A stretch of 32,000 bases of DNA from an endosymbiont of Escarpia spicata. GTDB taxonomy: Bacteria; Pseudomonadota; Gammaproteobacteria; Chromatiales; Chromatiaceae. The notes beneath the pieces are model-generated. The model saw nothing but the letters and a program-made list of their open reading frames with translations, was not told the DNA's origin and searched no databases. Shown piece after piece: positions 6,423 through 22,105 of this stretch. The stretch spans positions 24,355 to 56,354 of the forward strand of contig QFXE01000015.1 of assembly GCA_003349915.1 (NCBI GenBank), in the 5' to 3' direction. Position 1 is the stretch's first letter; the number at the start of each line of letters is the position of its first letter. The translations under genes and the position numbers were made by a program.

Positions 6423-8188
6423 GTGCAGAGGTAAATGCTCAAGCCAGCGGTAATCCGGTCATCGATCATCTAGATCTCTGGAGCAGTGTCTATGTGAGAA
6501 AGGCCACCACTGGACGTGGTAGCAATGTCAAGGTCAGTCCCTACGGCATCCAGAAACTGCGCGAACTGATTCTGGAGCTGGCTGTGCGGGGAAAGCTGGT
6601 ACCACAAGACCCCAATGATGAACCTTCCAGTGTGCTGTTGGAAAAGATTGCTGAAGAAAAAGCGCGGTTGGTAAAGGAAGGTAAGTTAAAGAAGCAGAAA
6701 AAGTTACCTAGAATCGGAGATGAACAGCCTCATAATCTCCCAGAAAACTGGGAGTGGATGCGATTGGGGGCCGTTACAAATTACGGGGTTACTGAAAAGG
6801 CCAATCCTGGTGATGTTGATGATGATGTTTGGGTTCTAGAGTTAGAGGATGTGGAAAAGGTTACATCAAGATTACTGAAACGCATTCGGTATTCTGAACG
6901 GCCATTCAAAAGCGCAAAAAATAGATTTGAAATTGGAGATGTGCTCTACGGAAAGCTACGCCCCTATTTGGATAAGGTTCTGGTCGCGGACGAATCTGGT
7001 GTTTGTACCACTGAGATTATCCCAATAAGAAGTTACGCGGGATTTGTTTCTGAATATTTGCGTCTGTTACTTAAAGCTCCCAGTTTTATTATTTACGCCA
7101 ACGAATCAACACATGGAATGAATCTACCTAGGCTGGGGACTGATAAAGCTCGACTGGCGCTGATTCCAGTGGCACCCGCTGCCGAACAACACCGCATCGT
7201 CGCCAAAGTCAACGAACTCATGGCCCTCTGCGACCATCTGGAACAACAACAAACCGACAGCCTCCAGGCCCACCAGACCCTGGTCGAAACCCTGCTGCGC
7301 ACCCTCGTTGATGCCAGTGATGCCGAAAGCACCCAACAAGCCTGGAGCCGCATCGCTGAACACTTCGACACCCTCTTCACCACCGAAGCATCCATCGATC
7401 AACTCAAACAAACCATCCTCCAACTCGCCGTCATGGGCAAACTCGTCCCCCAAGACCCCAATGACGAACCGGCTAGTGTGTTGTTGGAAAAAATTGCGGA
7501 AGAGCAGGCGGGGTTGATAAAGGAAGGAAAGATAAGAAAGAAAATTGCATTGCTGGAAATATCCACTGATGAAAAATTGTTCGACTTGCCTTTTGGTTGG
7601 GAGTGGGTGCGCTTGGGTGCGCTATCACCAGATTTTCAAAACGGTGCGTCGAGCCGTGGAGACAAAGAAGGAAAAGAGACTGTAGTTTTGAGACTGGCAG
7701 ATATTGATAACTGGCGCATATCACTCGCAGAGCCCCGGAGCCTTACGATAGCAGAATCCTCAATCAACAAATATTCGTTAGAAAAAAATGATGTATTGAT
7801 TATCAGAGTAAACGGCAGTGCAGATATTGTTGGCAGATTTGTCTTATGCGACCGTGAAATCAAAGCCATTTATTGCGACCACTTCATTCGTATGCGCTTT
7901 CCTGTGCAAGCACTTGTTCCTGCGTATCTTGAATTACTTGGCTCTTCAAGTCTGGTTAGGCAAAAGATTAACGATCTGTTCGTCAGCACGGCAGGCCAAA
8001 AGACTGTTAACCAAAAACACATTGGCTCTTTAGCAATTACACTTCCTCCTCTGGCCGAACAACACCGCATTGTCGCCAAAGTAAACGAACTCATGGCCCT
8101 CTGCGACACCCTCAAGGCCCGCATCCAGGATGCCCAAACCGCCCAGGTTCATCTGGCTGATGCCGTCGTCGAGCAGGCCGTGGCATGA
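6419..8188 (+). CDS. hsdS: Type I R-M specificity subunit (HsdS), 589 aa, two target-recognition domains separated by duplicated conserved helices
   Basis: The conserved spacers are duplicated: GKLVPQDPNDEP(S/A)SVLLEKIAEE... twice and AEQHRIVAKVNELMALCD twice. Each TRD starts with the LP.(N/G)WEW.RLG motif. Confidence 0.95.
   Translation: MSAEVNAQASGNPVIDHLDLWSSVYVRKATTGRGSNVKVSPYGIQKLRELILELAVRGKLVPQDPNDEPSSVLLEKIAEEKARLVKEGKLKKQKKLPRIGDEQPHNLPENWEWMRLGAVTNYGVTEKANPGDVDDDVWVLELEDVEKVTSRLLKRIRYSERPFKSAKNRFEIGDVLYGKLRPYLDKVLVADESGVCTTEIIPIRSYAGFVSEYLRLLLKAPSFIIYANESTHGMNLPRLGTDKARLALIPVAPAAEQHRIVAKVNELMALCDHLEQQQTDSLQAHQTLVETLLRTLVDASDAESTQQAWSRIAEHFDTLFTTEASIDQLKQTILQLAVMGKLVPQDPNDEPASVLLEKIAEEQAGLIKEGKIRKKIALLEISTDEKLFDLPFGWEWVRLGALSPDFQNGASSRGDKEGKETVVLRLADIDNWRISLAEPRSLTIAESSINKYSLEKNDVLIIRVNGSADIVGRFVLCDREIKAIYCDHFIRMRFPVQALVPAYLELLGSSSLVRQKINDLFVSTAGQKTVNQKHIGSLAITLPPLAEQHRIVAKVNELMALCDTLKARIQDAQTAQVHLADAVVEQAVA
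7181..7234 (+). repeat. hsdS internal direct repeat, copy 1 (54 nt, encodes AEQHRIVAKVNELMALCD)
   Basis: gccgaacaacaccgcatcgtcgccaaagtcaacgaactcatggccctctgcgac differs at 2 of 54 positions from copy 2 at 8054..8107. Confidence 0.9.
8054..8107 (+). repeat. hsdS internal direct repeat, copy 2
   Basis: gccgaacaacaccgcattgtcgccaaagtaaacgaactcatggccctctgcgac lies 873 nt downstream of copy 1 in the same frame. Confidence 0.9.
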
Positions 8189-8211
8189 CCGACTGGGGAT
8201 AACGCACCGAA

Positions 8212-9657
8212 ATGGATCTCAAGACCGTTCACATTGCTGGCTACAAGAACCTGGTCGATACCCGGCTCACTTTTGAAACCAGCGAAACACCCATCACTAT
8301 TATCGGCAACAACGGTACCGGCAAATCCAACCTGATCGAGGCACTGCTGCATATCTTTGTCGGCCTCTACTACGACAGGCCGCCGGAATTCGATTTCCAC
8401 ATCCAGTACGCAGCGCACAACAAAACCATCGAGATCAGCAACAGCGTTGAAACTGGTCGCTATAAGGTCATTGTCGACGGCACACCATTGAGCAACACCC
8501 GGTTTAAGGAATGGGTGCGAGAGCCCAATCAGATGCCGCCTTTCCCCTCGCAGGTGTTTACCTATTACTCCGGCACTTGCGACCGGGTGAAAAATATCAT
8601 CAAGAAATACAACCGCAGCTATCTGTACAAACTGAGACGACAGTCAGACGATCTGGAACGGCAGTTTGTCTTCTCCGATATATCACAGGCCGAATGGATT
8701 ATGCTTGGATTGATTGCTCATCAGCATCATGGACTGTTGAAAGAAATGGGAATTGGAGAACTGGATGCACTGCACCTGGCCATCCAACCACCAGAAAATT
8801 ATGTTCGAGATGAGGATGATCCAATCTTTTGGGGTACAGAAGGTGGCATTCGAGAGTTTTTGGCAGATATCGACAACCTCGCACTAGATCGCCGTGAACC
8901 GTATGCAAAATATAGCTGGTCGCATGATCGAGAAATGCGATTGTATTTATTGGAAACAGAACAACTAGAGAAAATCGGTTCAATATTAGAGCGACGGGGA
9001 ACCAACCTCTACAGTATGCTGCAAGCATTATCGGCAAAAAAAATACTAACGGATATTCTCTTTGATGTAATTAATCGAGAGGATAGTGCACAATACCAAA
9101 CCGATTCATTGAGTGAAGGTGAAAAGCAGCTTTTATGCGTAATCGGTGGTTTAACTCTATCTCAAAACAATGAATGCCTGGTACTGCTGGATGAGCCGGA
9201 TACCCACCTGAACCCCGCCTGGTCATGGCGATACGATAACCTGCTCAAGCAGGCGCTCACCTCCCGGCAGCGCACTAACTCGACCACCATCATTGCCACG
9301 CATGACCCCATTCTCATTTCCGGCCTGACCCGTGAGCAGGTGTTTATCGCCCGGATCGAGGGTAACCAACTGCTTTATGAGCAGCCATACCGAGACCCAC
9401 GGGGCCAGGGTGTGGCCAATATTCTGGTGAGCGAGTATTTCGGTCTGCCTTCGAGTTTGGATGAAAACACCCAATCGTTACTCGATGAACGGCTTCGTCT
9501 TGCCTATAAATCTGAAGCACTCACGGATGAAGATAAAGAGCGGTTGTCGGTAATCAATAAGCAACTCGAAGGCCTGGGCTTAACCATCTCGTTTCGTGAT
9601 CCAGCGTATAAAGAATTTGAGGAATGGAAGTTTAGGCAGGCACAGGGGGATGTGTGA
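8212..9657 (+). CDS. ABC/SMC-like AAA ATPase (AAA_15/AAA_21 type), Septu PtuA-like defence ATPase, 481 aa
   Basis: It has Walker A GNNGTGKSN near the N-terminus, the ABC-signature-like LSEGEKQLL and Walker B LVLLDEPDTHLNP followed by ATHDP. It starts 23 nt after hsdS and is immediately followed by an HNH-like gene. Confidence 0.8.
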   Translation: MDLKTVHIAGYKNLVDTRLTFETSETPITIIGNNGTGKSNLIEALLHIFVGLYYDRPPEFDFHIQYAAHNKTIEISNSVETGRYKVIVDGTPLSNTRFKEWVREPNQMPPFPSQVFTYYSGTCDRVKNIIKKYNRSYLYKLRRQSDDLERQFVFSDISQAEWIMLGLIAHQHHGLLKEMGIGELDALHLAIQPPENYVRDEDDPIFWGTEGGIREFLADIDNLALDRREPYAKYSWSHDREMRLYLLETEQLEKIGSILERRGTNLYSMLQALSAKKILTDILFDVINREDSAQYQTDSLSEGEKQLLCVIGGLTLSQNNECLVLLDEPDTHLNPAWSWRYDNLLKQALTSRQRTNSTTIIATHDPILISGLTREQVFIARIEGNQLLYEQPYRDPRGQGVANILVSEYFGLPSSLDENTQSLLDERLRLAYKSEALTDEDKERLSVINKQLEGLGLTISFRDPAYKEFEEWKFRQAQGDV

Positions 9658-9672
9658 GATACATTGATCTAG

Positions 9673-10470
9673 ATGCGGTTATCGATTCAATCTCCGGTGG
9701 AGATCCTTGTCACGCTGAAGGCCGTTGATGACGCGATGCCGGGTAAGTCGGATGCCGAAAAAGTAGATACCGCAGCAAATGGAAATGATCACTGGAGACC
9801 CGTCAAAACGCATCTAGAGGATGCCAGTAATCGCAAGTGCTGGTACACCGAATCAAAGAGTCCTGGTTGCCAGAATGATGTGGAACATTTCCGCCCCAAA
9901 GCAAGAGTGCCCAAGGAAGGTTGTATTGAACACTGGTACTGGTTTCTGGCGTTTAACCCCATCAACTATCGTCTTAGCAGCCAATTTTCCAATCGGCTAA
10001 ATTATAATTCGGTATTGGGAGCGACGGGTGGAAAAGGTAATAAGTTTCCACTCATGCCTGGTTCTCCACGGGTAACAGACATGGCCGGGTTGGATGATGA
10101 GCAGCCAGTGATTCTTGATCCCTGCATCGAGGCGGATACGGAGCTTCTAGAATTCCAGCCCGACGGCCGACCGGTTGTGAGTATGAAGCATGTGGCAGAT
10201 GTCGATGCGAGGTATAGAGTTGAACAGAGCAAACTGTTGTTGAATCTGGACTTCCCGACATTCAACGAAGGCAGAGAAAGTCTGTATAACAGAATCAAGG
10301 AATTGGTGGAGCGCGGTGATCGATATGTGCGAGATGGTGTCGATGCACTGGAGGATGTACAGAATGACCTGCGCGCTCTGATGCATGAGGGCGCGGAATA
10401 CAGCAAAGCAGCGGAGTGCTACATACGTTGCTTCCGTGACCGCGATTGGGTTGAGGAGCTGATTTTGTGA
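9673..10470 (+). CDS. HNH-like nuclease of the TIGR02646 / Septu PtuB type, 265 aa (start uncertain, see findings)
   Basis: The motif KCWYTES...DVEHFRPKA...NPINYRLSSQFSNRLNYN...GKGNKFPL matches the C.YCE...IEHFRPK...N...C..CN.K pattern of PtuB-like HNH proteins, but both Cys pairs are degenerate. It is the partner gene of the upstream ATPase. Confidence 0.7.
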   Translation: MRLSIQSPVEILVTLKAVDDAMPGKSDAEKVDTAANGNDHWRPVKTHLEDASNRKCWYTESKSPGCQNDVEHFRPKARVPKEGCIEHWYWFLAFNPINYRLSSQFSNRLNYNSVLGATGGKGNKFPLMPGSPRVTDMAGLDDEQPVILDPCIEADTELLEFQPDGRPVVSMKHVADVDARYRVEQSKLLLNLDFPTFNEGRESLYNRIKELVERGDRYVRDGVDALEDVQNDLRALMHEGAEYSKAAECYIRCFRDRDWVEELIL

Positions 10471-10631
10471 TCGCTTTGATAACACTCGGCAATCTTCAAG
10501 GGTACAGATTAGGTCCGAACTACTACACTTTTTCTGACTGCCAGAACTTCGCCCCAAACAACGTGGTCAAGGGTTTGTGCCTCGGCACCGTGCTAGTATT
10601 TGTCGTCCCAAAGTGCTTCCTCCAGTGAGGC

Positions 10632-11840
10632 TCAGACTCTTTGGTTTATATGAATAATCTCCGCACCAGTTTTTAGCTTATCAAGGTAATCCGCCCATTC
10701 CTGCATCATCCTGACCCTCTCCGGCATGTGTTCTGCGTAGTTATAGGCTGCTCGAACTGAATTTCTCTCAGCATGAGCTAATTGGCGCTCGATAGCGTCT
10801 CTGTGCCAACCCTGCTCATTCAGAAGGGTAGAAGCCATAGAGCGAAACCCGTGGCCCGTCATTTCTTCTTTTGTGTACCCAAGTCGCCTCAGGGCTGCAT
10901 TAACTGTATTTTCTGACATGGGACGTTTATTGCTGCGCACGCCTGGAAAAACATACTTTCCGTTGCCGGTGAGTGGCTTGATCTCTTTCAGAACTGCCAC
11001 TGATTGTGTTGAGAGTGGAACAATATGGAGCGTCCGCATTTTCATCTTCTCGGCTGGAATGCGCCACTCTGCGTTGCCCAGGTCAATTTCTGACCATTCG
11101 GCATGTCGAAGCTCTCCAGGGCGTACGAATGTCATGGAGGCAAGCTGGAGGGCGCTGCGGGTGATGAATGAGCCCTCATAGCCGTCAATCGCTCTCATGA
11201 GTTCACCAATCTTTACCGGATCGGTAATACTGGCATGGTGTTTTTGTCGGGTAGGGGGCAGGGCACCTTTCAGATCGGCAGAGGGATCGCGTTCTGCCCG
11301 ACCAGTGGCTACGGCATAGCGGAAGATCTGTCCGCAGCTTTGGTGGATGCGGTGGGCTGTTTCCAGTGCGCCTCTGTCTTCTATTCGGCGAAGGACTGTC
11401 AGTAGCTCAGGTGCTGTGATCTCGCCGATTGTCCTTGTGCCAATCCAAGGGAACACATCTTTCTCCAGTCGCAGCAAGATCCGGGACGAGTGGGTTTTCG
11501 ACCAGTTGGGCTCATGCTTGCCCCACCATTCACGGGCTACAGCCTCTAGGCTGTCTGCTCCTGATTGGGATGCCTTGGTTGCTTTGCGGGCTTCGCTTGG
11601 GTTAATTCCATCCACCAATTGCTTTCGGGCTGTTGATCTCCTGTCTCTTGCAGCTTTCAGAGACACGTCAGGATAGACCCCCATTGAGAGGGTTTTCCGC
11701 TTGCCGTTGAAACGGTAATCCAATCGCCACCACTTTCCTCCTTTTGGAGTAATGAGGAGATACAAGCCCGAGCCATCTGTCAGTTTGTATTGTTTGTCTT
11801 TGGGCTTGGCGTTACGGATGGCGCTGTCAGTGAGTGGCAT
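10632..11840 (-). CDS. int: P4-type (DUF4102-containing) tyrosine integrase, ~402 aa from the MPLTDSAIRNAKP start (the longest ORF extends to 11891)
   Basis: The N-terminus MPLTDSAIRNAKPKDKQYKLTDGSGLYLLITPKGGKWWRLDYRFNGKRKTLSMGVYP is typical of P4/CP4-57-like integrases. The C-terminal catalytic region reads HGFRSMAST...LAHAERNSVRAAYN. The gene lies adjacent to the 3' end of ssrA. Confidence 0.95.
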   Translation of the reverse strand: MPLTDSAIRNAKPKDKQYKLTDGSGLYLLITPKGGKWWRLDYRFNGKRKTLSMGVYPDVSLKAARDRRSTARKQLVDGINPSEARKATKASQSGADSLEAVAREWWGKHEPNWSKTHSSRILLRLEKDVFPWIGTRTIGEITAPELLTVLRRIEDRGALETAHRIHQSCGQIFRYAVATGRAERDPSADLKGALPPTRQKHHASITDPVKIGELMRAIDGYEGSFITRSALQLASMTFVRPGELRHAEWSEIDLGNAEWRIPAEKMKMRTLHIVPLSTQSVAVLKEIKPLTGNGKYVFPGVRSNKRPMSENTVNAALRRLGYTKEEMTGHGFRSMASTLLNEQGWHRDAIERQLAHAERNSVRAAYNYAEHMPERVRMMQEWADYLDKLKTGAEIIHINQRV

Positions 11841-11943
11841 GGCGGTAACTCCAGTGGCGGTAAGTGGGGCTACCGCCAAACTTACCGTCATTTATCGTGG
11901 ATTTCATAGGATAATACTAGACGGTAACGGACAGTCAGGCAAT

Positions 11944-11969
11944 AAAAAAGCCCGCTGTTACGCGGGCTT
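11944..11969 (-). terminator. Rho-independent terminator downstream of ssrA (stem AAGCCCGC / GCGGGCTT, followed by a U-tract on the minus strand)
   Basis: The minus strand reads ...AAGCCCGCgtaacaGCGGGCTTTTTTATT and lies about 35 nt past the tmRNA CCA end, inside island DNA. Confidence 0.7.
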
Positions 11970-12002
11970 AGGGTCTTTATTGGATTGCTTTGGATCTTGA
12001 AT

Positions 12003-12378
12003 TGGTGGAGGCGGGCGGATTCGAACCGCCGTCCGCGAGTCCTCTGCCTGAGGTTCTACATGTTTAGTCCGGTCTATTATTTTTAGCTGGCTGCCACCCG
12101 ACGGACAGGGTGTGCAGATAGCGGTTTCGGTAAAGTTTTAACGAATCCGCCCCGAACAAGCTTCATCGCGATCTTATGAGATATGACGCCTGATTGGTCC
12201 GAAGACCCTGGACGCATAAGCACGGCTCCAGTCAGACGGCATTCTACCGGTTATTAAGCGGCGAGTGCGTAGTTGTCGTCGTTGGCAACTATAAGTTTAC
12301 AGCTAGTTTTACGAGGTAATCTGCCCCTCGACATGCACCTAAGGTTTTGTAACCCCCGTCGAAGCCTACGTCGCCCCC
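12003..12378 (-). ncRNA. ssrA: tmRNA (SsrA), ~376 nt, tag peptide ANDDNYALAA
   Basis: The minus strand starts GGGGGCGACGTAGGCTTCGACGGGGGTTACAAAACC and ends CGGACGGCGGTTCGAATCCGCCCGCCTCCACCA. The internal reading frame gccaacgacgacaactacgcactcgccgcttaataa (complement 12251..12286) encodes ANDDNYALAA**. smpB is adjacent. Confidence 0.97.
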
Positions 12379-15776: not shown

Positions 15777-16199
15777 GTGGATAATCAGGAAATTAGAAAA
15801 GCGGGCTTGAAGGTTACCCTGCCAAGGGTAAAGATTCTTGAGCTACTTGAAGCGAGTGTGCCCCGCCACGTCAGCGCCGAAGATGTCTATAAGATGCTCC
15901 TGGAAAAGGGCGAAGAGATCGGTCTGGCGACTGTCTACCGGGTGTTGACCCAGTTTGAAACAGCGGGTTTGGTTACCCGGCATAATTTTGAGGGAGGGCA
16001 CGCAGTATTTGAATTGGATCGTGGAGAACATCACGATCACATCGTCTGTGTACTCTGTGGGAAGGTTGAAGAGTTTATGGATGCCACTATTGAAGAACGG
16101 CAAAAAGAGATTGCCGCAGAGCATGGATTTGAAATGGAGGACCACTCTCTGATTATCTATGGGCGTTGCAACAACCCTTCATGTCCGGGCCGGGAATAG
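15777..16199 (+). CDS. fur: Ferric uptake regulator Fur (140 aa, GTG start)
   Basis: LKKAGLKVTLPRVKILELL..., the HHDH motif and the CxxC pairs (CVLCGKV, CNNPSC) are present, giving a full-length Fur pattern. Confidence 0.95.
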   Translation: MDNQEIRKAGLKVTLPRVKILELLEASVPRHVSAEDVYKMLLEKGEEIGLATVYRVLTQFETAGLVTRHNFEGGHAVFELDRGEHHDHIVCVLCGKVEEFMDATIEERQKEIAAEHGFEMEDHSLIIYGRCNNPSCPGRE

Positions 16200-16262
16200 T
16201 GACAGTCTCCCAGCGGTTCTCGCCGTGTAAGGAGTTGTGATTCTCACGCTCAGCCAGCACTA

Positions 16263-16802
16263 CTACCCCTGATTCCTTGCGGCAGAGACAATTTTCAGAC
16301 AAGGGGGTGATCCTGTCCCCGGGGATGGTAACTGTCCCTTATTGCAGCAAATAACCTTTGGCGTTCCGGTCAATCCGAGTGTGAGCATGGATGTTCGGAC
16401 AGGTGGGGTGATGTCCGATGAAAGCACCCCTGAATCCTGGTGGTGGATGAAGAACTCGGTCCAGGTGGACTCCAGTATATCCGCTACGACGATCAACATG
16501 CGGGTTCTCAGCGGCTGTCCTTTGTCTCCAAGTGCAATATACAAATCGAGCAGAGCGCCAGCGATGCCTGCCTCATCATTGAGACGTAAGTGGAGATAAA
16601 TTCGCTGTACATGAGAGCGCAGGTCGGAAGGCTCATGTGTGATCTGCCGGGCCAGGTAGCTCGAAGCCTGCTCCCACCAGTTGCCGGCGTTCAACCAGAG
16701 TTGCTTTGCATCAGGAATACGAAACGCAGCCTCGATATCGGGATCGATCTCCCGAACACGCCGGAGTTGATGCTCATGGTCAGAGTGGGTGATGACTCGC
16801 AC
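16263..16802 (-). CDS. Hypothetical protein (179 aa, GTG start), helical, last gene of the GTPase/Roadblock cluster
   Basis: The ORF has protein-like composition for about 140 aa (ASSYLARQITHEPSDLRSHVQRIYLHLRLNDEAGIAGALLDLYIALGDKGQPLRTRML). The C-terminal ~35 aa are low quality. It is separated from the Roadblock gene by 163 nt. Confidence 0.5.
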   Translation of the reverse strand: MRVITHSDHEHQLRRVREIDPDIEAAFRIPDAKQLWLNAGNWWEQASSYLARQITHEPSDLRSHVQRIYLHLRLNDEAGIAGALLDLYIALGDKGQPLRTRMLIVVADILESTWTEFFIHHQDSGVLSSDITPPVRTSMLTLGLTGTPKVICCNKGQLPSPGTGSPPCLKIVSAARNQG

Positions 16803-16965
16803 TTTGCTTTGCCAGAGTGTACGGTGCCGGTTCGTTGCCAGTTATAAGGGCTCCAATCGCCCGTTCCGCCAAGTCTACCACAGATGCGGCCTCTCTCTGA
16901 CATCGATCAATATTGACAGTGAGTGACTACTTGATGCCATCAAATGGTGATCTCAAGGTCTTGGA

Positions 16966-17328
16966 TCAAATCATTTTGATGATGTTTTCCGTTGCACGCT
17001 TTACGTCGAGAAAGATTAAACCCAGTTTTGCGGTGGGTTTTGCCAACACAGTGACTACCGCCTCCTCTCCGGCGTGCATCATAAGCACGTAACCTTTGTT
17101 GCCTTTCACCAGGACCTGTTCGAGCTCGCCGCGGGCAAGTTCCTGGGCGGTACGGTCTCCCAATGAGAGCATGGCGGCACTCATCGCGCCAACCCTGTCT
17201 TCATCCATTCCCGCAGGCAGTTGTGATGCCATCATCAAACCATCCGTTGAGATAACCCCGGATGCTTCGATATCGGCTGAAGTGCCGTTAAGATCACTCA
17301 ATATAGAGTTCAGCATGTCTGAGCGCAT
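16966..17328 (-). CDS. Roadblock/LC7 (MglB/CvnB-like) domain protein, 120 aa
   Basis: ADIEASGVISTDGLMMASQLPAGMDEDRVGAMSAAMLSLGDRTAQELARGELEQVLVKGNKGYVLMMHAGEEAVVTVLAKPTAKLGLIFLDVKR is the canonical Roadblock/LC7 pattern. Confidence 0.85.
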   Translation of the reverse strand: MRSDMLNSILSDLNGTSADIEASGVISTDGLMMASQLPAGMDEDRVGAMSAAMLSLGDRTAQELARGELEQVLVKGNKGYVLMMHAGEEAVVTVLAKPTAKLGLIFLDVKRATENIIKMI

Positions 17329-17475
17329 GTTTATGTCCCCAACTTTATAAAATTATTGTAGATTTCTGTTGTTATCATTACTTTACAGCCCCGGCGGGGA
17401 GAGGTGAATTTCTCGACCTTGTGACCGACAGTGTTTTCTCTTAAATGCATGGTGCGAAGGCAAGGATAGGTATTT

Positions 17476-18129
17476 TTACCCATTCAGGTTTCCATAACGT
17501 TTGTTCAATGCCCAAATCAGCTGGGTCAATACCGGCTGATTAAGATGTGGTACGCCGCCAATGACGAGCACGAATCGGTGCTCACCAATGTAGATTGGCC
17601 AGAATCCAACCTGGCTGTTTCCTGCTGCGTCCACCAATGCCCACGCGCTGGTCCAGAATTCCAGCTTGTCATGCAAAATGTTGAGCCGGCGTTCGTGCAT
17701 CGAGGCAATGTCAGCGCTGATAGCGGACAGATAAATCGCAGTTTCGTTGGAAAAACCCAGGGAGTAGATAGAAAATCCCTGATAATCCGCCAAAATGACT
17801 TTGCCGCTGCCTGAAAGCTTTGGGAGCAATTTTGGCAACAACTGCTCGATGATTTCCTCCGGCGCTGCGTGTCTCTCTTCAAAACCCTCGATCCAGCCCA
17901 TGGTCTGGGCTTTGTAGAGCGTCTCCAGTGTCTCTTCTTCGTCGACTTGGCTCCAGGATATCAAGTTTTCCAGGGTCAAACGATGGCTCGACTCCCCATC
18001 CATCATGGCGCGCAGCATGATTCTGGCTAATGTCGGGTCGGGTGCAGAGACACAATAGTAGGCACCAGCGGGCGTTGGGAGTACAAACAAACCCTGCGTT
18101 AAAAGATAGTTTTCCAAGTCAGGCAGCAA
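17476..18129 (-). CDS. Hypothetical 217 aa protein; the C-terminal half looks like a divergent Roadblock/longin-type fold, the N-terminal half may be winged-helix-like (a CvnC/DUF742 analogue?)
   Basis: The C-terminal segment GKVILADYQGFSIYSLGFSNETAIYLSAISADIASMHERR...AWALVDAAGNSQVGFWPIYIGEHRFVLVIGGVP follows the Roadblock alpha-beta-beta-alpha-beta-beta pattern. Its start overlaps the GTPase stop by 11 nt. Confidence 0.6.
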   Translation of the reverse strand: MLPDLENYLLTQGLFVLPTPAGAYYCVSAPDPTLARIMLRAMMDGESSHRLTLENLISWSQVDEEETLETLYKAQTMGWIEGFEERHAAPEEIIEQLLPKLLPKLSGSGKVILADYQGFSIYSLGFSNETAIYLSAISADIASMHERRLNILHDKLEFWTSAWALVDAAGNSQVGFWPIYIGEHRFVLVIGGVPHLNQPVLTQLIWALNKRYGNLNG

Positions 18130-18733
18130 ATTCCAGATCCAATGAAACCACTAATGCTTCGATAAGTAATGCTACGTCGATTTGGTTTCTCGCATCTACC
18201 GAAAAAACGGGAATATTAGGAAGGACGTTCCGTAGTTGCGCCTGATAATCGTTGATTCTGGGGGTAATGCAGATGTCTGTTTTGGTGATACCGATGGCAA
18301 TGCGACTTTTTTTGGTGAACTTTTTGAATGCCCGGAGGAAAAAGTGCAGTTCACTGAAGGGGTCTGGATGGGTGTTGTCGATGAGCAGTACCAGGCCAGT
18401 ACTGCCCTTGCTCAGAATATCCCACATGAAGTCAAAGCGTGTTTCGCCAGGTGTGCCGTAGAGATGAAGGGTTTTAATTCCCGGCAGCTGCATTGTCCCG
18501 TAATCCATGGCGACGGTGGTGGTCGTTTTGGAATCCCGGGATATGTCGGTAGCCTGGGCCTCGGTAGTCAGGGGAGGGGTAGTGCAGACGCTGGTGATTG
18601 CTGTGGTCTTACCTGCACTAACCGGCCCAGCAAAGAGTATTTTGTAGTTATCCATCAGGTGGTTAGGGGAGGCAGACCTAGGAGACTGTCGGGTTATGGA
18701 AGAATCTACTGCGCCGGTGGGAAATCGGTCCAT
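18119..18733 (-). CDS. Small P-loop GTPase of the COG2229 / CvnD (conservon) type, 204 aa (the core may start at MDNYKILF, complement 18655)
   Basis: It has G1 GPVSAGKTT, G3 LYGTPGETRFDFMWDIL, G4 GITKTD and a G5-like FSVDA. It is linked to Roadblock genes. Confidence 0.85.
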   Translation of the reverse strand: MDRFPTGAVDSSITRQSPRSASPNHLMDNYKILFAGPVSAGKTTAITSVCTTPPLTTEAQATDISRDSKTTTTVAMDYGTMQLPGIKTLHLYGTPGETRFDFMWDILSKGSTGLVLLIDNTHPDPFSELHFFLRAFKKFTKKSRIAIGITKTDICITPRINDYQAQLRNVLPNIPVFSVDARNQIDVALLIEALVVSLDLEFAA

Positions 18734-18841
18734 TTTTTCGATATTTTTCGTTAAATAGGTCCACTATTCGCCTCAAAAGATCAAAAAACTGGCCTCGATT
18801 TCCCACCTTGCTCGCTACGATTCCCATAATCTGACAGCCTC

Positions 18842-20179
18842 CTAGTGCAGGCTTAACTGACGCAGGATTTTTTGGAACAATGTTTTGTTGCCGTTGGACT
18901 TGACGGGGTTATCTTCGGTGGCGATTTCCTCATTTATGCTTTCCTCCGTGGTTGCCAGTCCGATTGCATGAGCGGCGCTGAAGAAGGAAAAAACATAACG
19001 TTGCGGGATTTCCAATGCCTGGGCGGTGCTGGCCAGCGTGTGTGCCTGTTTTGCCCAAAGTGCAGCAATTCGAGTGGCTTGGGGAAAAATCTGCAAACGC
19101 GTCAGATTGGGCCAGTGTTTAAATACGACGGTATTGTTGGGGCTGACGTTGACAGGAATCCGTCCCAGGCTGGTCCAGAGCGTGAGTTCCCAAACAAAAG
19201 CTTCCACGGGGCGGCGATGGGTCTGGCCCGGTATGTCGCATACTGAATCCTGTACAGAGAGCAGGTATTCATCATCGTTGACTGGTTGGGAGGCCAGCGA
19301 CTGTAGCCGTTGGCCGTCAATTTCAACCAAAACTTCTCGGGTCATAGGAACAATGGTAATTGAGCCGTGGCTACTTGAGATGCTGACGGGCCGCCCGGAG
19401 GTTTCAGCAAGCTTGACGGCCTTCTGTACACGTCCGATCAGAAATCTTTTTGGATCGTATTGCACCCAGGCGAGCTGGGTTTCATTATCCAGGTCCACGT
19501 CAGGTGTTGAGCCGATGAATGGCGCAGCAGTTTTTATTTCCTGTTTGCCAACTGAGATCTGCTTGGTTGTCGCATCGGCAGGTTCGCTCAGAAGCGGTGG
19601 GTTATTGGTCTGCCCACCTTGCTTGTATGCATACAATTGGGCGCGTCTGATCTTCTCTTTTTTCAACAGCGCCTGTAGCAATTTGATTTTATGCCGTAGC
19701 TCCTGATGGTGGCCGGTAAGCGCCAGCTCAGCTTCAGCAGATGATTTGGGCAGGGAGACCGGTGCCACTTGCCTCTGTTGGAGATGCAGTTTCTCGCGGA
19801 TTTTTTCCAGCTCACTGTGCAGAAGATCTGCCTGCAATGGTTTTTGCAGCCATTTTGCGTTTTCTACCTCCGTCTTATGTAGGGAGAGCAGAATAGCAGG
19901 GCAGCTGCGTTGGCGCTCTGCGTGTTTTGCCCAATAAGACTTACCACGAAGGCCATCCAGGTCGATAAGGCAGATGTCGGCGGACTGTGGATCCACAGCT
20001 ACGACATAGTCGCCCTGACATCTGTCTGAGAAGAAGTACCGCAATCTGTTTTCGAGGCGCTCGTTGATATCGAGCAGGGCGACTTTCAGTGGCCTGTAGT
20101 CTGTCTTCTGGGGCATTGCACAGGTTGCGATGAATGATTGCTCAATAGGGGTATCGTTGCTCTGCTTTTGAACTTTCAT
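18842..20179 (-). CDS. Receiver-like (REC) domain protein with a long Lys/Gln-rich linker and an unassigned ~230 aa C-terminal domain, 445 aa
   Basis: The N-terminal pattern is KVALLD(beta1)...ADICLIDLDG(beta3, acceptor Asp)...PAILLS(beta4 Ser)...LQKPL(beta5 Lys). The C-terminal region (EAFVWELTLWTSLGRIP...ATRIAALWAKQAHTL) is not recognisable to me. Confidence 0.6.
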   Translation of the reverse strand: MKVQKQSNDTPIEQSFIATCAMPQKTDYRPLKVALLDINERLENRLRYFFSDRCQGDYVVAVDPQSADICLIDLDGLRGKSYWAKHAERQRSCPAILLSLHKTEVENAKWLQKPLQADLLHSELEKIREKLHLQQRQVAPVSLPKSSAEAELALTGHHQELRHKIKLLQALLKKEKIRRAQLYAYKQGGQTNNPPLLSEPADATTKQISVGKQEIKTAAPFIGSTPDVDLDNETQLAWVQYDPKRFLIGRVQKAVKLAETSGRPVSISSSHGSITIVPMTREVLVEIDGQRLQSLASQPVNDDEYLLSVQDSVCDIPGQTHRRPVEAFVWELTLWTSLGRIPVNVSPNNTVVFKHWPNLTRLQIFPQATRIAALWAKQAHTLASTAQALEIPQRYVFSFFSAAHAIGLATTEESINEEIATEDNPVKSNGNKTLFQKILRQLSLH

Positions 20180-20431
20180 AACTACACTTTTAATCTTGTG
20201 GCTACTTTGTATAGAACTCAGAATAACGCGCAGCGAGGTTCTTATGATAGGGCATGAAACCTAATTTTACATCGGGTTGGATCTGTCCGCCAAATCATCA
20301 TTCAGGTCTTCGGGATAGTGTCCTGATGGGCAAGAGCTGGGAAGTGTGTCACAAAAGCACAATGAAATGGCGGGGGGCTGGATAATGAGGCCAGGAAGTG
20401 ATGATTGTTTACAATACGCCCACTGGAGTGA

Positions 20432-22105
20432 TTACCGCCTGTCCGCGAGGGAGATCATCTCTTCAGCGTGGGCGAGCGTCTGTTCAGTTATTTTGATACC
20501 GCCCAACATGCGGGCGATCTCCTGGATTCGGCTCTCATCCCCCAGTGGGGTGATCTCCGTGCGGGTCAGCTTATTGGTCGTGCTTTTCTGCACTTGGAGG
20601 TGGTTCAAAGCCTGTGCCGCTACTTGGGGCAAGTGGGTGACGCAGAGAAATTGCCTGGACTCGCCGAGGGTGCGCAGCATCTGGCCTACGATCTCAGCCA
20701 CACTGCCGCCGATGCCGACGTCGACCTCATCGAATACGAGGGTCGGGGTGTCGCCGTAACGGATGGTGGCGACCTGGATGGCCAGACTGATGCGGGAGAG
20801 TTCACCGCCGGAGGCCACCTTGTTAAGGGGCTGCAGAGGCATGCCTGGATTGGCGGAGACCATGAATTCGATCTGCTCAAGCCCCGAGCCGTTGGCGTCT
20901 GCTGCGTTGATCCCCTTTAGGGTGACATCGAAACGTCCACCGGGCATACCCAGTTGTTGCATGGCAGCACTGATCTCCTGAGCCAGTCGTTTGCCGGCCT
21001 GACGGCGCTTGCCGCTCAGTTTTTTCGCCTGCCCTAAAAACGCCTCCCGCTGTTTTTCAACATAAACGGACAGGGTCTCCAGCTCTACATCGGCGTTCTC
21101 CAACTGCGCCAGCTCCTGCAGGATCTGCTGCAGACGCTGGGGGAGTCTCTCCGGGCTGACCCGGTATTTTCGCGCCATGTCATGCAGTGCGCCGATGCGC
21201 GCTTCCACCTGCTGCAGGCTTTCGGGATCGAGTTCAAGACCTGAGAGATAGTTGCGCAGGCTGATCAGGGCCTCATCCACCTGAATCAGGGCGCTTGCCA
21301 GCATTTCCCCGGGTTCTTCGAGATTGCTGTCCAGCTCCTGCAGTGCGCTGAGTTCATCACTCAGACGTGCGAGTTGGCTGCGCAGTGACGGCTCGTTCTC
21401 ATCGAGCCCATCGATCACCGCTCCGCACCCAAAACGCAGTCGCTCCAGATGGCTCAGGCGTTTGTGGTCTCTGTCCAGCGTCTTGATCTCTGCGGCGGAA
21501 GCACCAAGCTGCGACAATTCATCGGCCTGAAATCGCAGCAGGTCCAGTCGGGAGGCCCGGTCTGCAGCAGCGGCCAGCAGGGTTTCCAGTTGTTCAAATG
21601 ATTTGCGGTAGTCTCTGAATGACTCATCGACTGTTTTTGTCAGGCCAAGATGGCCCCCGTAGGCATCGAGCAGACGCCGCTGATAGTGGGGGCGCAGTAG
21701 TGATTGATGCGCGTGCTGGCCATGAATCTGCACCAAACGTTGCCCCAGTTCCTGGACCTGTTGGATAGGGACAGGGCGACCGTTGATATAGGCGCGGGAG
21801 CGGCTCTCTCTGGAGAGCACTCGTCGTAGCAGGCAGTCGTTCTCATCGTCTAGGGAGTGATCCTGGAGCCAGCTGTGGATCTCCGGCAGGGCGGAGATAT
21901 CGAAGATGGCGGTGATTTCGGCTCGTTCACTGCCGTTCCTGATCATGCTGTTGTCTGTTTTGCCGCCGAGGGCCAGACCAAGGGCATCGATCAGGATAGA
22001 TTTACCCGCCCCGGTCTCACCGGTGAGAGCGCTCAGTCCGGAAAAAAGGTCCAGCTCCAGTGCTGCAACGATGGCCAGATTACGAACATATATCTGCGTC
22101 AGCAT
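20432..22105 (-). CDS. recN: DNA repair protein RecN (557 aa)
   Basis: MLTQIYVRNLAIVAALELDLFSGLSALTGETGAGKSILIDAL is the N-terminus. The protein has an SMC-like architecture with the C-terminal ASGGELSRISLAIQ...LVFDEVDVGIGG. Confidence 0.97.
   Translation of the reverse strand: MLTQIYVRNLAIVAALELDLFSGLSALTGETGAGKSILIDALGLALGGKTDNSMIRNGSERAEITAIFDISALPEIHSWLQDHSLDDENDCLLRRVLSRESRSRAYINGRPVPIQQVQELGQRLVQIHGQHAHQSLLRPHYQRRLLDAYGGHLGLTKTVDESFRDYRKSFEQLETLLAAAADRASRLDLLRFQADELSQLGASAAEIKTLDRDHKRLSHLERLRFGCGAVIDGLDENEPSLRSQLARLSDELSALQELDSNLEEPGEMLASALIQVDEALISLRNYLSGLELDPESLQQVEARIGALHDMARKYRVSPERLPQRLQQILQELAQLENADVELETLSVYVEKQREAFLGQAKKLSGKRRQAGKRLAQEISAAMQQLGMPGGRFDVTLKGINAADANGSGLEQIEFMVSANPGMPLQPLNKVASGGELSRISLAIQVATIRYGDTPTLVFDEVDVGIGGSVAEIVGQMLRTLGESRQFLCVTHLPQVAAQALNHLQVQKSTTNKLTRTEITPLGDESRIQEIARMLGGIKITEQTLAHAEEMISLADRR

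Follow-up and report, generated by a model that had tools for sequence, protein, structure and literature searches.

A predicted Group 3 MglA small-GTPase module in a rearranged form between recN and fur of the Escarpia spicata endosymbiont

Group 3 MglA systems were defined by comparative genomics, with the architecture DUF>MglA>MglB>MglB (Wuichet & Søgaard-Andersen 2014, PMC4316618). A REC-like N-terminus, a variable linker and a winged helix-turn-helix (wHTH)-like C-terminus of the large protein, as well as the presence of one or two MglB proteins, were reported in the same study. Its Table S2 gives Noc_0132 and MEALZ_2464 as Group 3 loci with the order DUF>MglA>MglB(>MglB), and XCV4103 as an "MglA" of 444 aa that lacks a separate DUF gene. 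Two other classes are the conservon (Group 2), which has a CvnA kinase and a DUF742 protein, and the Myxococcus Group 1 MglA, which has an intrinsic arginine finger and the motif TVPGQ. An Asp-Gly type motif has been described for the MglBs coupled to Groups 2 to 5.

The window analyzed here is a 32,000-nt stretch of contig QFXE01000015.1 from the endosymbiont of Escarpia spicata. The ORF list confirmed five co-directional minus-strand ORFs in its recN-fur interval. The synteny nadK-recN-//-fur-bamE-rnfH-ratA-smpB-ssrA is otherwise conserved with the module inserted at the double slash, in agreement with a sequence-only reading of the locus. The features are as follows.

16263..16802, minus strand: p179, core domain only (~residues 23-151; tblastn, alignment)
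16966..17328, minus strand: short canonical Roadblock/LC7 protein (MglB-2), 120 aa (Pfam Robl_LC7, 1.6e-16)
17476..18117, minus strand: long MglB paralogue (MglB-1), 213 aa (family alignment, model, Foldseek)
18119..18655, minus strand: MglA-family (Group 3) small GTPase, 178 aa (Pfam, homologue lengths, motifs, structure matches)
18842..20179, minus strand: p445, the "DUF" of Group 3 MglA systems (homology to Noc_0132, model, Foldseek)
20264..20293, minus strand: sigma-70-like promoter match (9/12 hexamer matches, consensus scan)
16200..20431, no strand: divergent cassette block, bounded by the stops of recN and fur

The five genes are classed by homology as a genuine small-GTPase signalling module of the "Group 3 MglA system" type, because their homologues Noc_0132 and MEALZ_2464 are named by locus tag in PMC4316618. 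The p445 protein is homologous to Noc_0132 (P0316; E 1.9e-41, 93% coverage), and the GTPase shares 57% identity with MglA from the MEALZ_2464 locus, a listed Group 3 system (PMC4316618). The domain guesses made from sequence, namely, a receiver, a small GTPase and a double Roadblock, were largely right according to profiles, models and Foldseek; as also stated there, no histidine kinase is encoded nearby, and no function is established for such modules in Gammaproteobacteria. In the Pfam/NCBIfam check proposed for these assignments, the GTPase and the 120 aa protein were matched, and the 445, 217 and 179 aa proteins had no match of their own.

The longest ORF of the GTPase gene reaches position 18733, from which a 204 aa product had been read. 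Its identity as a GTPase stood and its length did not: the best 120 of the 3,671 homologues found were 178 to 187 aa long, and since homologues have 178 aa, the start is almost certainly Met27, the ATG at 18655 (MDNYKILF...). The GTPase matched ATP_bind_1 (1.2e-8), Roc (7.8e-6) and Ras (1.6e-4) in Pfam and carried the motifs G1 GPVSAGKTT, G2 TTTTVAMDYG, G3 GTPGE, G4 TKTD and G5 DAR, of which G2 TT, G3 GTPGx and G5 DAR agree with the signatures published for Groups 2-5 and for Group 3. The closest solved structures were Thermus thermophilus and Myxococcus xanthus MglA (E ~2e-5), whose catalytic Gln aligns with E71. The 178 aa GTPase was shown to belong to the MglA lineage without an intrinsic arginine finger. 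Replacement of the catalytic G3 Gln by Glu (GTPGQ to GTPGE) was confined to the tubeworm symbionts in the motif statistics.

The 120 aa protein MglB-2, correctly read as a canonical Roadblock/LC7 protein, showed the strongest conservation in the module (66-100% identical over 86 loci, dN/dS 0.00-0.05), with PDB sequence matches to Thorarchaeota Roadblock (5.6e-25), Prometheoarchaeum Roadblock3 (2.9e-16) and CvnB5 (3.9e-9). For MglB-1, a 217 aa protein overlapping the GTPase gene by 11 nt had been described; this overlap is an artefact of the longest ORF, which begins at 18129. The start is most likely the TTG at 18117 (MENY...), because it fits the family consensus MxxYxL and gives 213 aa like P0121/P0122; it lies 1 nt past the GTPase stop codon (TGA 18121-18119). 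The N-terminal ~85 aa of MglB-1 form a helical, winged-helix-like domain, followed by a Roadblock fold at ~89-217 (217 aa numbering). The family (211-214 aa, invariant D115 and G118) had no Pfam match in the first family search; member by member, 51 of 68 matched Robl_LC7. With the MglB-1 model (pLDDT 91.2), Foldseek retrieved MglB, Roadblock and Ragulator/LAMTOR at probability 1.0 (E 3e-4), and the profile retrieved CvnB5 from the PDB (E 0.031), in line with the second, divergent Roadblock suspected in the C-terminal half. The Asp-Gly type motif is present as TDG in MglB-2 and as the invariant D115/G118 in MglB-1.

The locus had been likened to MglA/MglB and conservon GTPase systems; it is related to both and belongs to neither, being Group 3 instead. 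That it is a horizontally acquired conservon of the actinobacterial type or a Myxococcus-type polarity module is hardly credible. The pairing of a GTPase with Roadblock proteins is common to both, the ATP_bind_1 match is shared with CvnD-type GTPases and G5 DAR with Group 2, CvnB5 is among the PDB matches of both Roadblock proteins, and the module includes a REC protein, comparable to RomR of the Myxococcus system. However, a CvnA-like kinase and a DUF742 protein are absent from the window and not recurrent in 86 related loci, on which the Group 2 identity was rejected, and the GTPase lacks the Group 1 arginine finger in G2 and has GTPGx, not TVPGQ, in G3, on which the Group 1 identity was rejected. 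The published classification assigns homologues of this cluster to Group 3, which is distinct from both Group 1 (MglA) and the conservons of Group 2 (PMC4316618), and the distribution is gamma- and betaproteobacterial.

The p445 protein (100% identity with an E. spicata endosymbiont protein annotated as hypothetical) consists of a REC-like domain (~30-137), a variable helical Lys/Gln-rich linker (~138-222; 23-118 residues long in the family) and a conserved alpha/beta and winged-helix-like C-terminus (~223-445). Its AlphaFold model had a pLDDT of 84.7, mostly above 90 in the C-terminal domain, and matched the receivers PhoP, CheY and RssB in Foldseek (E 2e-5 to 1e-3). Together with conserved pocket residues (D73 in 74/75, D75 in 75/75, S99 in 70/75 and K113-P114 in 75/75 family members), this fold supported the receiver-like N-terminus, and the beta1 acidic pair is kept only in part, as had been noticed. 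The domain may be a pseudo-receiver, because the REC model lacks helix alpha4. Among family members, Response_reg was matched in four and HTH_20, MarR_2, PF0610-like_N or HTH_5 in a few. A natural fusion, P0298, joins a p445-like region (7-376) to a GTPase (392-555), and XCV4103 is likely a DUF-MglA fusion; such fusions support a direct partnership of the REC protein and the GTPase.

The original proposal of Wuichet and Søgaard-Andersen was a transcriptional switch, in which p445 would be an atypical DNA-binding response regulator with gene expression as its output, gated by the GTPase and the two MglBs instead of, or besides, phosphorylation. We regard it as possible but rather unlikely here. 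It is consistent with the wHTH-like fold of the p445 C-terminus (Phyre2 confidence of at least 90%, PMC4316618), a three-helix and strand motif at 368-411 of the model (pLDDT >90), the helical wHTH-like N-terminal domain of MglB-1, with two weak MarR_2 matches in its family, and the natural fusions. The HTH_20, MarR_2, HTH_5 and PF0610-like_N matches in p445 members also point that way, but they are weak and sporadic (at most 4/75 members), and the p445 profile retrieved no DNA-binding protein from the PDB. The putative recognition helix appears strikingly hydrophobic (IPQRYVFSFFSAAHAIGL), which would be atypical for DNA binding, and no conserved target operon adjoins the module across taxa. 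Neisseria meningitidis NMB0478, by synteny the long MglB, showed DNA binding in a South-western assay (PMC2885667), but this assay of the membrane fraction is non-specific, having also lit PilQ, Omp85 and FtsE, and its authors saw no DNA-binding motif. An NMB0478 null mutant had wild-type piliation, aggregation and competence (PMC2885667). The NMB0478 data speak against pilus biogenesis as the role and give mild preference to a nucleic-acid-linked one.

The 179 aa protein, earlier set down as a helical unknown, is judged from gene neighborhoods to belong to the module as its conserved fifth component and not to be an incidental neighbor, with a core that still matched nothing in the PDB or Pfam. 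Homologues were found by tblastn in about 60 of 86 loci, placed upstream of the REC gene, and the order was exactly p179>p445>GTPase>p217>Robl in 47; 442 representative clusters were matched at E ≤ 1e-3, of which 144 also passed E ≤ 1e-10. The family usually has a C-terminal TPR tail (TPR_19 in 25/40 members), and no TPR_19 was found in the p179 of the window. In the tubeworm symbionts the gene is at the 3' end of the operon instead of the 5' end and the tail is lost. Co-conservation of the five genes despite this permutation suggests one functional unit. The 1-nt junction of GTPase and MglB-1, the lack of any minus-strand terminator-like site inside the cluster (consensus scan) and a single upstream promoter-like site point to one operon. 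This site, the sole one on the cluster strand, lies in the 252-nt recN-p445 spacer and is a weak match, as the region had fewer matches than expected from shuffling. Small PAS (24 loci), CZB (14) and REC (14) proteins encoded directly downstream of the module at other loci support a signal-transduction context.

Nucleotide identity to the L. satsuma and L. barhami symbionts, scanned in 200-nt windows, was ~95% outside the block, 60-83% inside and ~90% over the Roadblock gene. The dS inside was 0.50-1.10 compared to 0.11-0.41 outside (3-8 times higher). Such a sharply bounded block implies allelic replacement. Acquisition had been suggested from low GC and GC3 judged by eye; GC3 is indeed lower in the cluster (0.56-0.62) than in recN and nadK (0.69), but composition alone does not single out the cluster, because fur (0.52), ratA (0.54), rnfH (0.58) and bamE (0.60) are as low. 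Acquisition is supported instead by the block and by the fact that every non-tubeworm genome sampled carries the cluster elsewhere in the chromosome. In a decaying remnant, the TPR tail and catalytic Gln would have been lost by drift and the divergence would reflect relaxed constraint, as the identities between symbionts of p445 (60%), p179 (72%) and GTPase (76%) against 97-99% in flanking genes, the replaced Gln and the truncated p179 might suggest. Decay is very improbable, however, and largely refuted by dN/dS, which over the whole set of five genes was 0.03-0.27 in the divergent comparison and 0.00-0.32 in close ones; purifying selection acts on all five (p179 dN/dS 0.18-0.23). All ORFs are intact in eight symbiont loci, both alleles of the cassette keep the G3 Glu, and dS is raised as well, for which relaxed protein constraint cannot account.

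Our main reading, with a probability of about 0.6 that covers the operon and the steps jointly, is that one operon encodes a Group 3 MglA-family small-GTPase switch. Direct evidence covers GTPase identity and domain assignments; for the GTPase cycle, GAP platform, receiver, adaptor and output we infer the following. The GTPase would alternate between GTP and GDP forms and need partner proteins for hydrolysis, as in solved MglA-MglB complexes. MglB-1 and MglB-2 would form a heterodimeric platform that binds one GTPase asymmetrically, in parallel to the MglB homodimer binding one MglA, and acts as a GAP or nucleotide-state regulator. The p445 protein would be the signal-receiving partner, its Asp73 phosphorylated by a kinase encoded elsewhere or by a small phosphodonor, which would alter the interaction of the C-terminal domain with the GTPase; it could act as a RomR-like recruiter/effector or bind DNA. 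The p179 family would serve as an adaptor, its TPR tail coupling the switch to a further partner in most bacteria. Any GAP, GEF and effector roles are putative and drawn by analogy only. As output, the switch might act on transcription through the winged-helix domains, or on type IV pilus or cell-surface behavior. A hint of surface behavior comes from Snodgrassella, in which a point mutation in mglB of its Group 3 system altered soft-agar flares and host-specific gut colonization (PMC11112851). A localization or surface-behavior switch is slightly favored over a transcription factor.

In the tubeworm symbionts the switch would have been re-wired, with the fifth gene moved, the TPR lost, G3 Gln changed to Glu and the G4 Lys restored, and put between recN and fur, where it would behave as a cassette that can be exchanged and exists as two divergent alleles. 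The module class, the architecture of the large protein and the number of MglBs are already known. New are p179 as the fifth component, the G3 Gln to Glu change found only in tubeworm symbionts, and the sharply bounded divergent cassette; the copy described here is an unusual, rearranged Group 3 variant, whose GTPase may differ from the rest of the family in the mechanism of GTP hydrolysis or, by a wide margin, in its rate.

By sequence homology, the five minus-strand genes between recN and fur (16263-20179) are a Group 3 MglA system. The prokaryotic MglA-family GTPases were divided into five groups by Wuichet and Søgaard-Andersen (2014, Genome Biol Evol; PMC4316618), and Group 3 was almost exclusive to beta- and gamma-Proteobacteria. 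In that description, a "DUF" protein with a receiver-like N-terminus, a variable linker, a wHTH-like C-terminus and no Pfam model accompanies the GTPase, one or two coupled mglB genes lie downstream of mglA, and the motifs are a Thr in G2, GTPGQ in G3, DAR in G5 and a G4 often without the Lys of [NT]KxD (PMC4316618). Among the members in Table S2 of that study, Noc_0132 of Nitrosococcus oceani (DUF>MglA>MglB) corresponds to P0316, a full-length homologue (E 1.9e-41) of p445, the 445 aa protein of the window, and MEALZ_2464 of "Methylobacterium" (Methylotuvimicrobium) alcaliphilum (<MglB<MglB<MglA<DUF, 178 aa MglA) belongs to the compared locus L003, with genes of 419, 178, 214 and 120 aa, where the GTPase homologue P0057 shared 57% identity with that of the window over 85% of its length. 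Metme_1347 of Methylomonas methanica and NMB0476 of N. meningitidis are listed there as DUF>MglA>MglB>MglB (PMC4316618), and the same order in the window equals that of the NMB0476 and MEALZ_2464 loci. Group 3 membership follows from homology to these listed members, and TT in G2, GTPGx in G3 and DAR in G5 agree with it, the last residue of the window G3 being Glu in place of Gln; the Lys in the window G4 still allows it, because the published wording is "often lack". The loci NMB0476-0479, MEALZ_2464 and Noc_0132 have in common with the window the gene set, TT in G2, GTPGx in G3, DAR in G5 and the beta/gamma distribution. Since the class was catalogued in 2014, the cluster falls short of being categorically new.

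Gene models were corrected from the homologues. The p445 protein had a 100% identical counterpart among the hypothetical proteins of the Escarpia spicata endosymbiont, and the GTPase was 98% identical to a Lamellibrachia anaximandri endosymbiont protein, which places the origin of the window in a vestimentiferan tubeworm symbiont (Sedimenticolaceae). The 204 aa GTPase ORF gave no identical entry in an exact-sequence look-up because it is over-extended: its 26-residue N-terminal extension was not conserved in homologues, which measured 178-187 aa among the best 120 of 3671, and the start was therefore placed at ATG 18,655. For MglB-1, the long Roadblock protein encoded next, TTG 18,117 is the most likely start, giving a 213 aa product that begins with MENY, since this fits the family consensus MxxYxL and the size resembles that of the homologues P0121 and P0122. 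The start sits 1 nt past the GTPase stop codon, with an identical 1-nt junction in the L. satsuma symbiont, so that the 11-nt overlap between the GTPase and "217 aa" genes described in the sequence-only reading proved to be an artefact of the uncorrected starts. Tight translational coupling of the GTPase and MglB-1 is likely. Gene packing was tight, and one promoter-like site upstream of the five genes (at about 20,264-20,293) and no terminator-like site between them were seen, both of them weak evidence.

The GTPase matched ATP_bind_1 (1.2e-8), Roc and Ras in Pfam, and its nearest solved structures were those of MglA (E ~2e-5). Its G2 is TTTTV, having the Thr and not the Group 1 Arg finger, and its G5 is DAR (SVDAR). 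In G3, GTPGE, the GTPG part is kept and the Gln is replaced by a Glu aligned with the catalytic Gln of MglA. This Glu was present in 8/8 tubeworm-symbiont loci (GTPGE[TPV]RF) and in 0/67 other loci with a full-length GTPase match (GTPGQERF). The G4 is TKTD, with the canonical Lys, and TKxD was found in the tubeworm symbionts, whereas most relatives have TQxD, TQMD in most homologues. All five genes showed dN/dS of 0.00-0.32 in every comparison, so selection maintains the module. The lineage-specific change of a catalytic residue under purifying selection is beyond the accessible literature.

Two known GTPase systems had been put forward as analogues of this cluster, the actinobacterial conservon and the MglAB/RomR polarity module, and it is a member of neither. 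The conservon (Group 2: CvnA kinase-like, CvnB Roadblock, CvnC DUF742 and CvnD GTPase; Mfp in mycobacteria) likewise joins a GTPase and a Roadblock protein with two-component-type parts, has a DAR G5 and no arginine finger, and both Roadblock proteins show a detectable relationship to its CvnB5. The cluster nevertheless lies outside the conservons because it has neither a CvnA kinase-like gene nor a DUF742 gene. A receiver protein stands in place of the histidine-kinase-like protein, there are two Roadblock proteins, one with an extra N-terminal domain, a fifth TPR-family protein is present, and the phylum is another. HATPase, HisKA and DUF742 were absent from the five proteins at E<=1 in the Pfam/NCBIfam scan, confirming the reported absence of a histidine kinase from the module, and neither these domains nor any histidine kinase recurred among the flanking genes of 86 related loci. 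The Myxococcus xanthus polarity module (Group 1 MglA, MglB, MglC, RomR/RomX and RomY, with the TPR-containing effector SgmX) resembles the cluster in combining an MglA-family GTPase with Roadblock regulators, a second Roadblock paralogue, a REC-domain partner and, in most Group 3 loci, a TPR-containing partner, and MglA is the nearest solved structure. It is set apart by its intrinsic Arg finger and its G3, TVPGQ, both absent from the window GTPase. In addition, the partners form one operon in the window, whereas in Myxococcus RomR, RomX, MglC and SgmX are encoded apart, the C-terminal domain of the window REC protein differs from that of RomR, and any link of the cluster to motility is putative.

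The p445 sequence alone had no Pfam or NCBIfam match. Its AlphaFold model (pLDDT 84.7) contains a five-stranded alpha/beta domain at residues 31-137, a low-confidence helical linker, 23-118 aa long across the family, and a C-terminal domain at ~223-421, mostly with pLDDT >90, in which residues 368-411 form a three-helix and strand, winged-helix-like unit. Foldseek against PDB retrieved the receivers PhoP, CheY, RssB and VanR (E 2e-5 to 1e-3); the family profile matched a response regulator weakly (E 0.0099), and Pfam Response_reg was reached by 4/75 relatives, all distant (best 3.4e-6). In the 75 homologues, Asp75 and Lys113-Pro114 were invariant (75/75), and Asp73 (74/75) and Ser99 (70/75) were nearly so. 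The receiver N-terminus proposed earlier is thus supported by the fold and by a conserved putative phospho-acceptor pocket; however, the acidic residues expected after beta1 are displaced and only partly kept (LGMDER in the family, LLDINE in the window), and helix alpha4 is absent from the model. A few members showed weak HTH_20, MarR_2, HTH_5 and PF0610-like_N matches. A natural fusion, the 563 aa homologue P0298, joins a p445-like part (7-376) to a GTPase (392-555), and XCV4103, given in Table S2 as a 444 aa "MglA" with the separate DUF gene unlisted (PMC4316618), is likely another. Such fusions support a direct partnership of the REC protein and the GTPase.

Both Roadblock assignments were retained. 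MglB-2, the short 120 aa protein, matched Pfam Robl_LC7 (1.6e-16). Its best PDB sequence match was the Thorarchaeota Roadblock 7F8M (E 5.6e-25), the Prometheoarchaeum Roadblock 9JUE followed at E 2.9e-16, and no solved MglB matched at E 0.01, which places it by sequence much nearer to Asgard-archaeal Roadblock than to any solved bacterial MglB. Its gene (16966-17328) was by far the most conserved of the module, with 66-100% identity over the 86 loci. MglB-1 is composed of a winged-helix-like domain and a Roadblock fold. As a single sequence it was below detection by Pfam and NCBIfam; its AlphaFold model (pLDDT 91.2) shows an N-terminal helical domain of ~85 residues followed by the Roadblock fold, for which Foldseek gave probability 1.0 to MglB of M. 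xanthus and T. thermophilus (6hjm, 1j3w, 3t12), Asgard Roadblock and Ragulator LAMTOR, with target-normalised TM of 0.5-0.65. Robl_LC7 was matched by 51/68 members of its family, and the family profile matched CvnB5 at E 0.031. These results bear out the second, divergent Roadblock fold suggested for the C-terminal half of the "217 aa" protein, and the by-eye domain guesses as a whole turned out essentially right when set against Pfam, family alignments and structure prediction. Pairwise hhalign among the p445 REC, middle and wHTH domains, the N- and C-terminal parts of MglB-1, the p179 core and the MglB-2 family gave probabilities <2% throughout, with no sign of hidden paralogy between the unassigned domains of the module; because the comparison with the short Roadblock was insignificant, the assignment of the MglB-1 C-terminus leans on Foldseek and Pfam. 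The Ragulator LAMTOR2/3-Rag and Asgard Roadblock systems are similar in the Thorarchaeota match of MglB-2, the LAMTOR match of MglB-1 and the arrangement proposed for the module, a Roadblock heterodimer serving as platform for a small GTPase. The likeness extends to the fold level only; the window has a bacterial operon and an MglA-type, not Rag-type, GTPase. The genome scan with the MglB-1 family found 320 relatives in species-representative genomes, overwhelmingly Gammaproteobacteria, among them Chromatiales, Methylococcales, Thiodiazotropha, Ectothiorhodospira, Methylophaga and tubeworm symbionts.

The co-conserved proteins are five, not four, and the fifth is missing from the published DUF>MglA>MglB>MglB description. 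Homologues of p179, the 179 aa product of the fifth gene, were found in ~60/86 loci by tblastn with the window proteins as queries, and the exact order p179>p445>GTPase>MglB-1>MglB-2 in 47; in methanotroph loci the homologue is the 246-247 aa gene before the "DUF". The family comprises 442 representative clusters at E<=1e-3 and has a conserved core, HVQRI...YGALLDLFIxLGxKGxxLRxRML...SxLSKGLxG, for which no Pfam, NCBIfam or PDB match was obtained. Most members carry a C-terminal TPR of ~80 residues (TPR_19 in 25/40). The tail was also considered as a FimV/HubP C-terminal motif, which was weak and seen in 5/40 (best E 0.02) compared with 25/40 for the generic TPR, and this candidate was rejected. 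In the tubeworm symbionts the gene is shifted to the 3' end and the TPR is lost, so that a p179-family gene in this position and form distinguishes the window from published Group 3 loci. That p179 is kept despite the permutation argues for its functional linkage to the module. Small proteins of sensor type recurred as satellites directly downstream of the module in other taxa: PAS in 24 of the 86 loci, together with a Phosphonate-bd protein, CZB in 14 loci (Pfam 8.9e-13) and extra REC proteins in 14 loci.

Several loci departed from this organisation. No separate GTPase gene was present between the genes for the REC protein and the long MglB in L032, L033, L036, L051 and L052 (at ~3400-7700 in each), and in those with ORFs listed (L032, L036, L052) the p445-like ORF was enlarged to 504-583 aa and the p179 homologue was short, TPR-less and 184-196 aa long. 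In L026 and L045, from Methylophaga and Methylophagaceae MAGs, MglB-1>MglB-2 precede REC-protein>GTPase with another gene between, a second independent rearrangement that kept the components together. The MAG loci L073, L074 and L077, labelled Bifidobacterium or Ilumatobacteraceae, contain the trio p179>MglB-1>MglB-2 with no adjacent REC protein or GTPase, and L029, labelled Acidimicrobiales, contains the full five-gene module; these Actinobacteria-binned contigs could reflect gammaproteobacterial mis-binning or real transfer. A divergent second GTPase paralogue of 39% identity (L063, 3316-3810, minus strand), ~1.6 kb upstream of the module GTPase gene and on the opposite strand, and a Roadblock fragment upstream of the module in L019 (2399-2521, minus strand) may be traces of duplication.

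In the window, the five genes break a conserved housekeeping synteny. On one side of the block are recN (20,432-22,105; SMC_N) and then nadK, and on the other fur (15,777-16,199), bamE, rnfH, ratA, an SNF-family transporter gene, smpB and the tmRNA gene. The corresponding orders are grpE-nadK-recN-bamE-ratB-ratA-smpB-ssrA in E. coli and recN-fur-omlA in P. aeruginosa. Among Group 3 loci, tubeworm symbionts alone had the module at the recN-fur site; every other genome sampled, Thiodiazotropha from the same family among them, has it elsewhere and in canonical order, so that the recN-fur location is derived.

The cassette was compared with the loci of the L. satsuma and L. barhami symbionts (L002 [CP053680] and L012) by dS and a 200-nt nucleotide identity scan. 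The flanking genes showed protein identity of 91-99%, most of them 93-99%, and dS of 0.11-0.41, and the five cassette genes dS of 0.50-1.10, that is, 3-8 times the flanks, with p445 protein identity down to 59-60%. Breakpoints fell at the recN stop and the fur stop (~16200-20431), with ~95% identity outside and 60-83% inside, rising to ~90% over the MglB-2 gene. Against the symbionts of L. anaximandri and E. laminata and a Sedimenticolaceae MAG, identity was a uniform 90-97% over the whole stretch. Allele A is carried by the symbionts of E. spicata, E. laminata and L. anaximandri and allele B by those of L. satsuma and L. barhami, and the two segregate independently of the flanking phylogeny, since the L. 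satsuma flanks are as close to the window as those of the same-allele genomes. This is most simply explained if the cassette was replaced by homologous recombination, recN and fur providing the arms; at its borders, the search for repeats or mobile-element ends gave just short chance-level repeats. The alleles diverged after the lineage-specific re-wiring, because both carry the permutation and the Glu. Composition was a poorer guide: GC3 of the cassette (0.56-0.62) was indeed lower than that of core genes (0.69-0.72), as had been judged by eye, and higher than that of the ssrA island (0.49-0.54), and yet GC and GC3 are undiagnostic of the acquisition that they had been said to fit, because fur, ratA, rnfH and bamE have matching GC3. 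The five-gene definition and the cassette-like allelic replacement are beyond the accessible literature.

Elsewhere in the window, 2548-12378 appears to be a genomic island integrated at the tmRNA gene, with the following features:

12003-12378, minus strand, tmRNA, tag peptide ANDDNYALAA
10632-11891, minus strand, phage-type integrase (Arm-DNA-bind_3, Phage_int_M, Phage_integrase), adjoining the tmRNA gene
9673-10470, 265 aa island protein with no assignment
8212-9657, AAA_21/SMC_N-type ATPase of the island
2548-4896 (hsdR), 4893-6422 (hsdM) and 6419-8188 (hsdS), complete type I restriction-modification system

The low island GC3 (0.49-0.54) refers to hsdS, the ATPase, the 265 aa protein and the integrase. 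In the L. satsuma symbiont locus L001, only an integrase fragment was found at the equivalent place.

Literature searches by locus tag and genus brought up neither biochemistry nor genetics on a Group 3 GTPase; the experimental work that they found on the group consisted of one study in Snodgrassella and two incidental findings in Neisseria. Snodgrassella communis (Neisseriaceae) has a Group 3 mgl with two linked mglB and one orphan, and the G78R change in the orphan MglB gave motile flares on soft agar and made the bacterium more competitive in a non-native bee host (PMC11112851). In N. meningitidis, NMB0478 co-purified with the inner membrane and bound DNA in a South-western screen, and pili, aggregation and competence in the null mutant were like those of the wild type (PMC2885667). 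Synteny identifies NMB0478 as the long MglB, as NMB0477 is annotated "GTP-binding protein", and the NMB0477 protein was 5-fold up when the Fur-controlled sRNA NrrF was expressed, relative to an nrrF deletion (PMC5586341).

The module combines an MglA-family GTPase that lacks an intrinsic Arg finger with two proteins of Roadblock fold, one of receiver fold and a fifth co-conserved protein. By analogy with M. xanthus genetics and the solved complexes of MglA with MglB, the two Roadblock proteins would pair into a heterodimeric platform, which would bind a single GTPase and control its hydrolysis or nucleotide state. The REC protein may be phosphorylated by an unlinked kinase or a small phosphodonor and couple this input to the GTPase, either as recruiter or effector or by providing a DNA-binding output, and the p179 family may serve as an adaptor through its TPR. 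One candidate output is a surface or type IV pilus-linked behaviour, suggested by the Snodgrassella hint and by a TPR adaptor that resembles SgmX, the effector of MglA; the Neisseria mutant, however, was piliated like the wild type, which speaks against a part in pilus biogenesis itself. The other candidate is transcription, suggested by the winged-helix domains and the DNA binding of NMB0478.

For the horizontally transmitted tubeworm symbionts, we consider it unlikely, at roughly one chance in eight, that the cassette is a host-association determinant, a reading that draws on the two deeply diverged, recombination-exchanged alleles, the fixed site, the re-engineered GTPase (Gln to Glu, G4 Lys restored) and the TPR-stripped adaptor, and that parallels the Snodgrassella mglB point mutation altering host-specific gut colonisation. 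If it is true, a five-protein G-protein switch would control surface or colonisation behaviour under diversifying, allele-swapping selection between host lineages. The practical gain for the window is a correct annotation replacing four "hypothetical proteins". Hundreds of beta- and gammaproteobacterial species have Group 3 systems, among them Neisseria, Xanthomonas, Stenotrophomonas, Acinetobacter, methanotrophs, and free-living and symbiotic sulfur-oxidisers, and here the module is seen acting as an exchangeable cassette in animal symbionts. For specialists in bacterial small GTPases the variant and the fifth component are useful and testable: the model could be examined in a tractable host such as Methylotuvimicrobium, Neisseria or Acinetobacter, and the Gln to Glu variant, kept under purifying selection, offers a ready-made test of the hydrolysis mechanism of the family.
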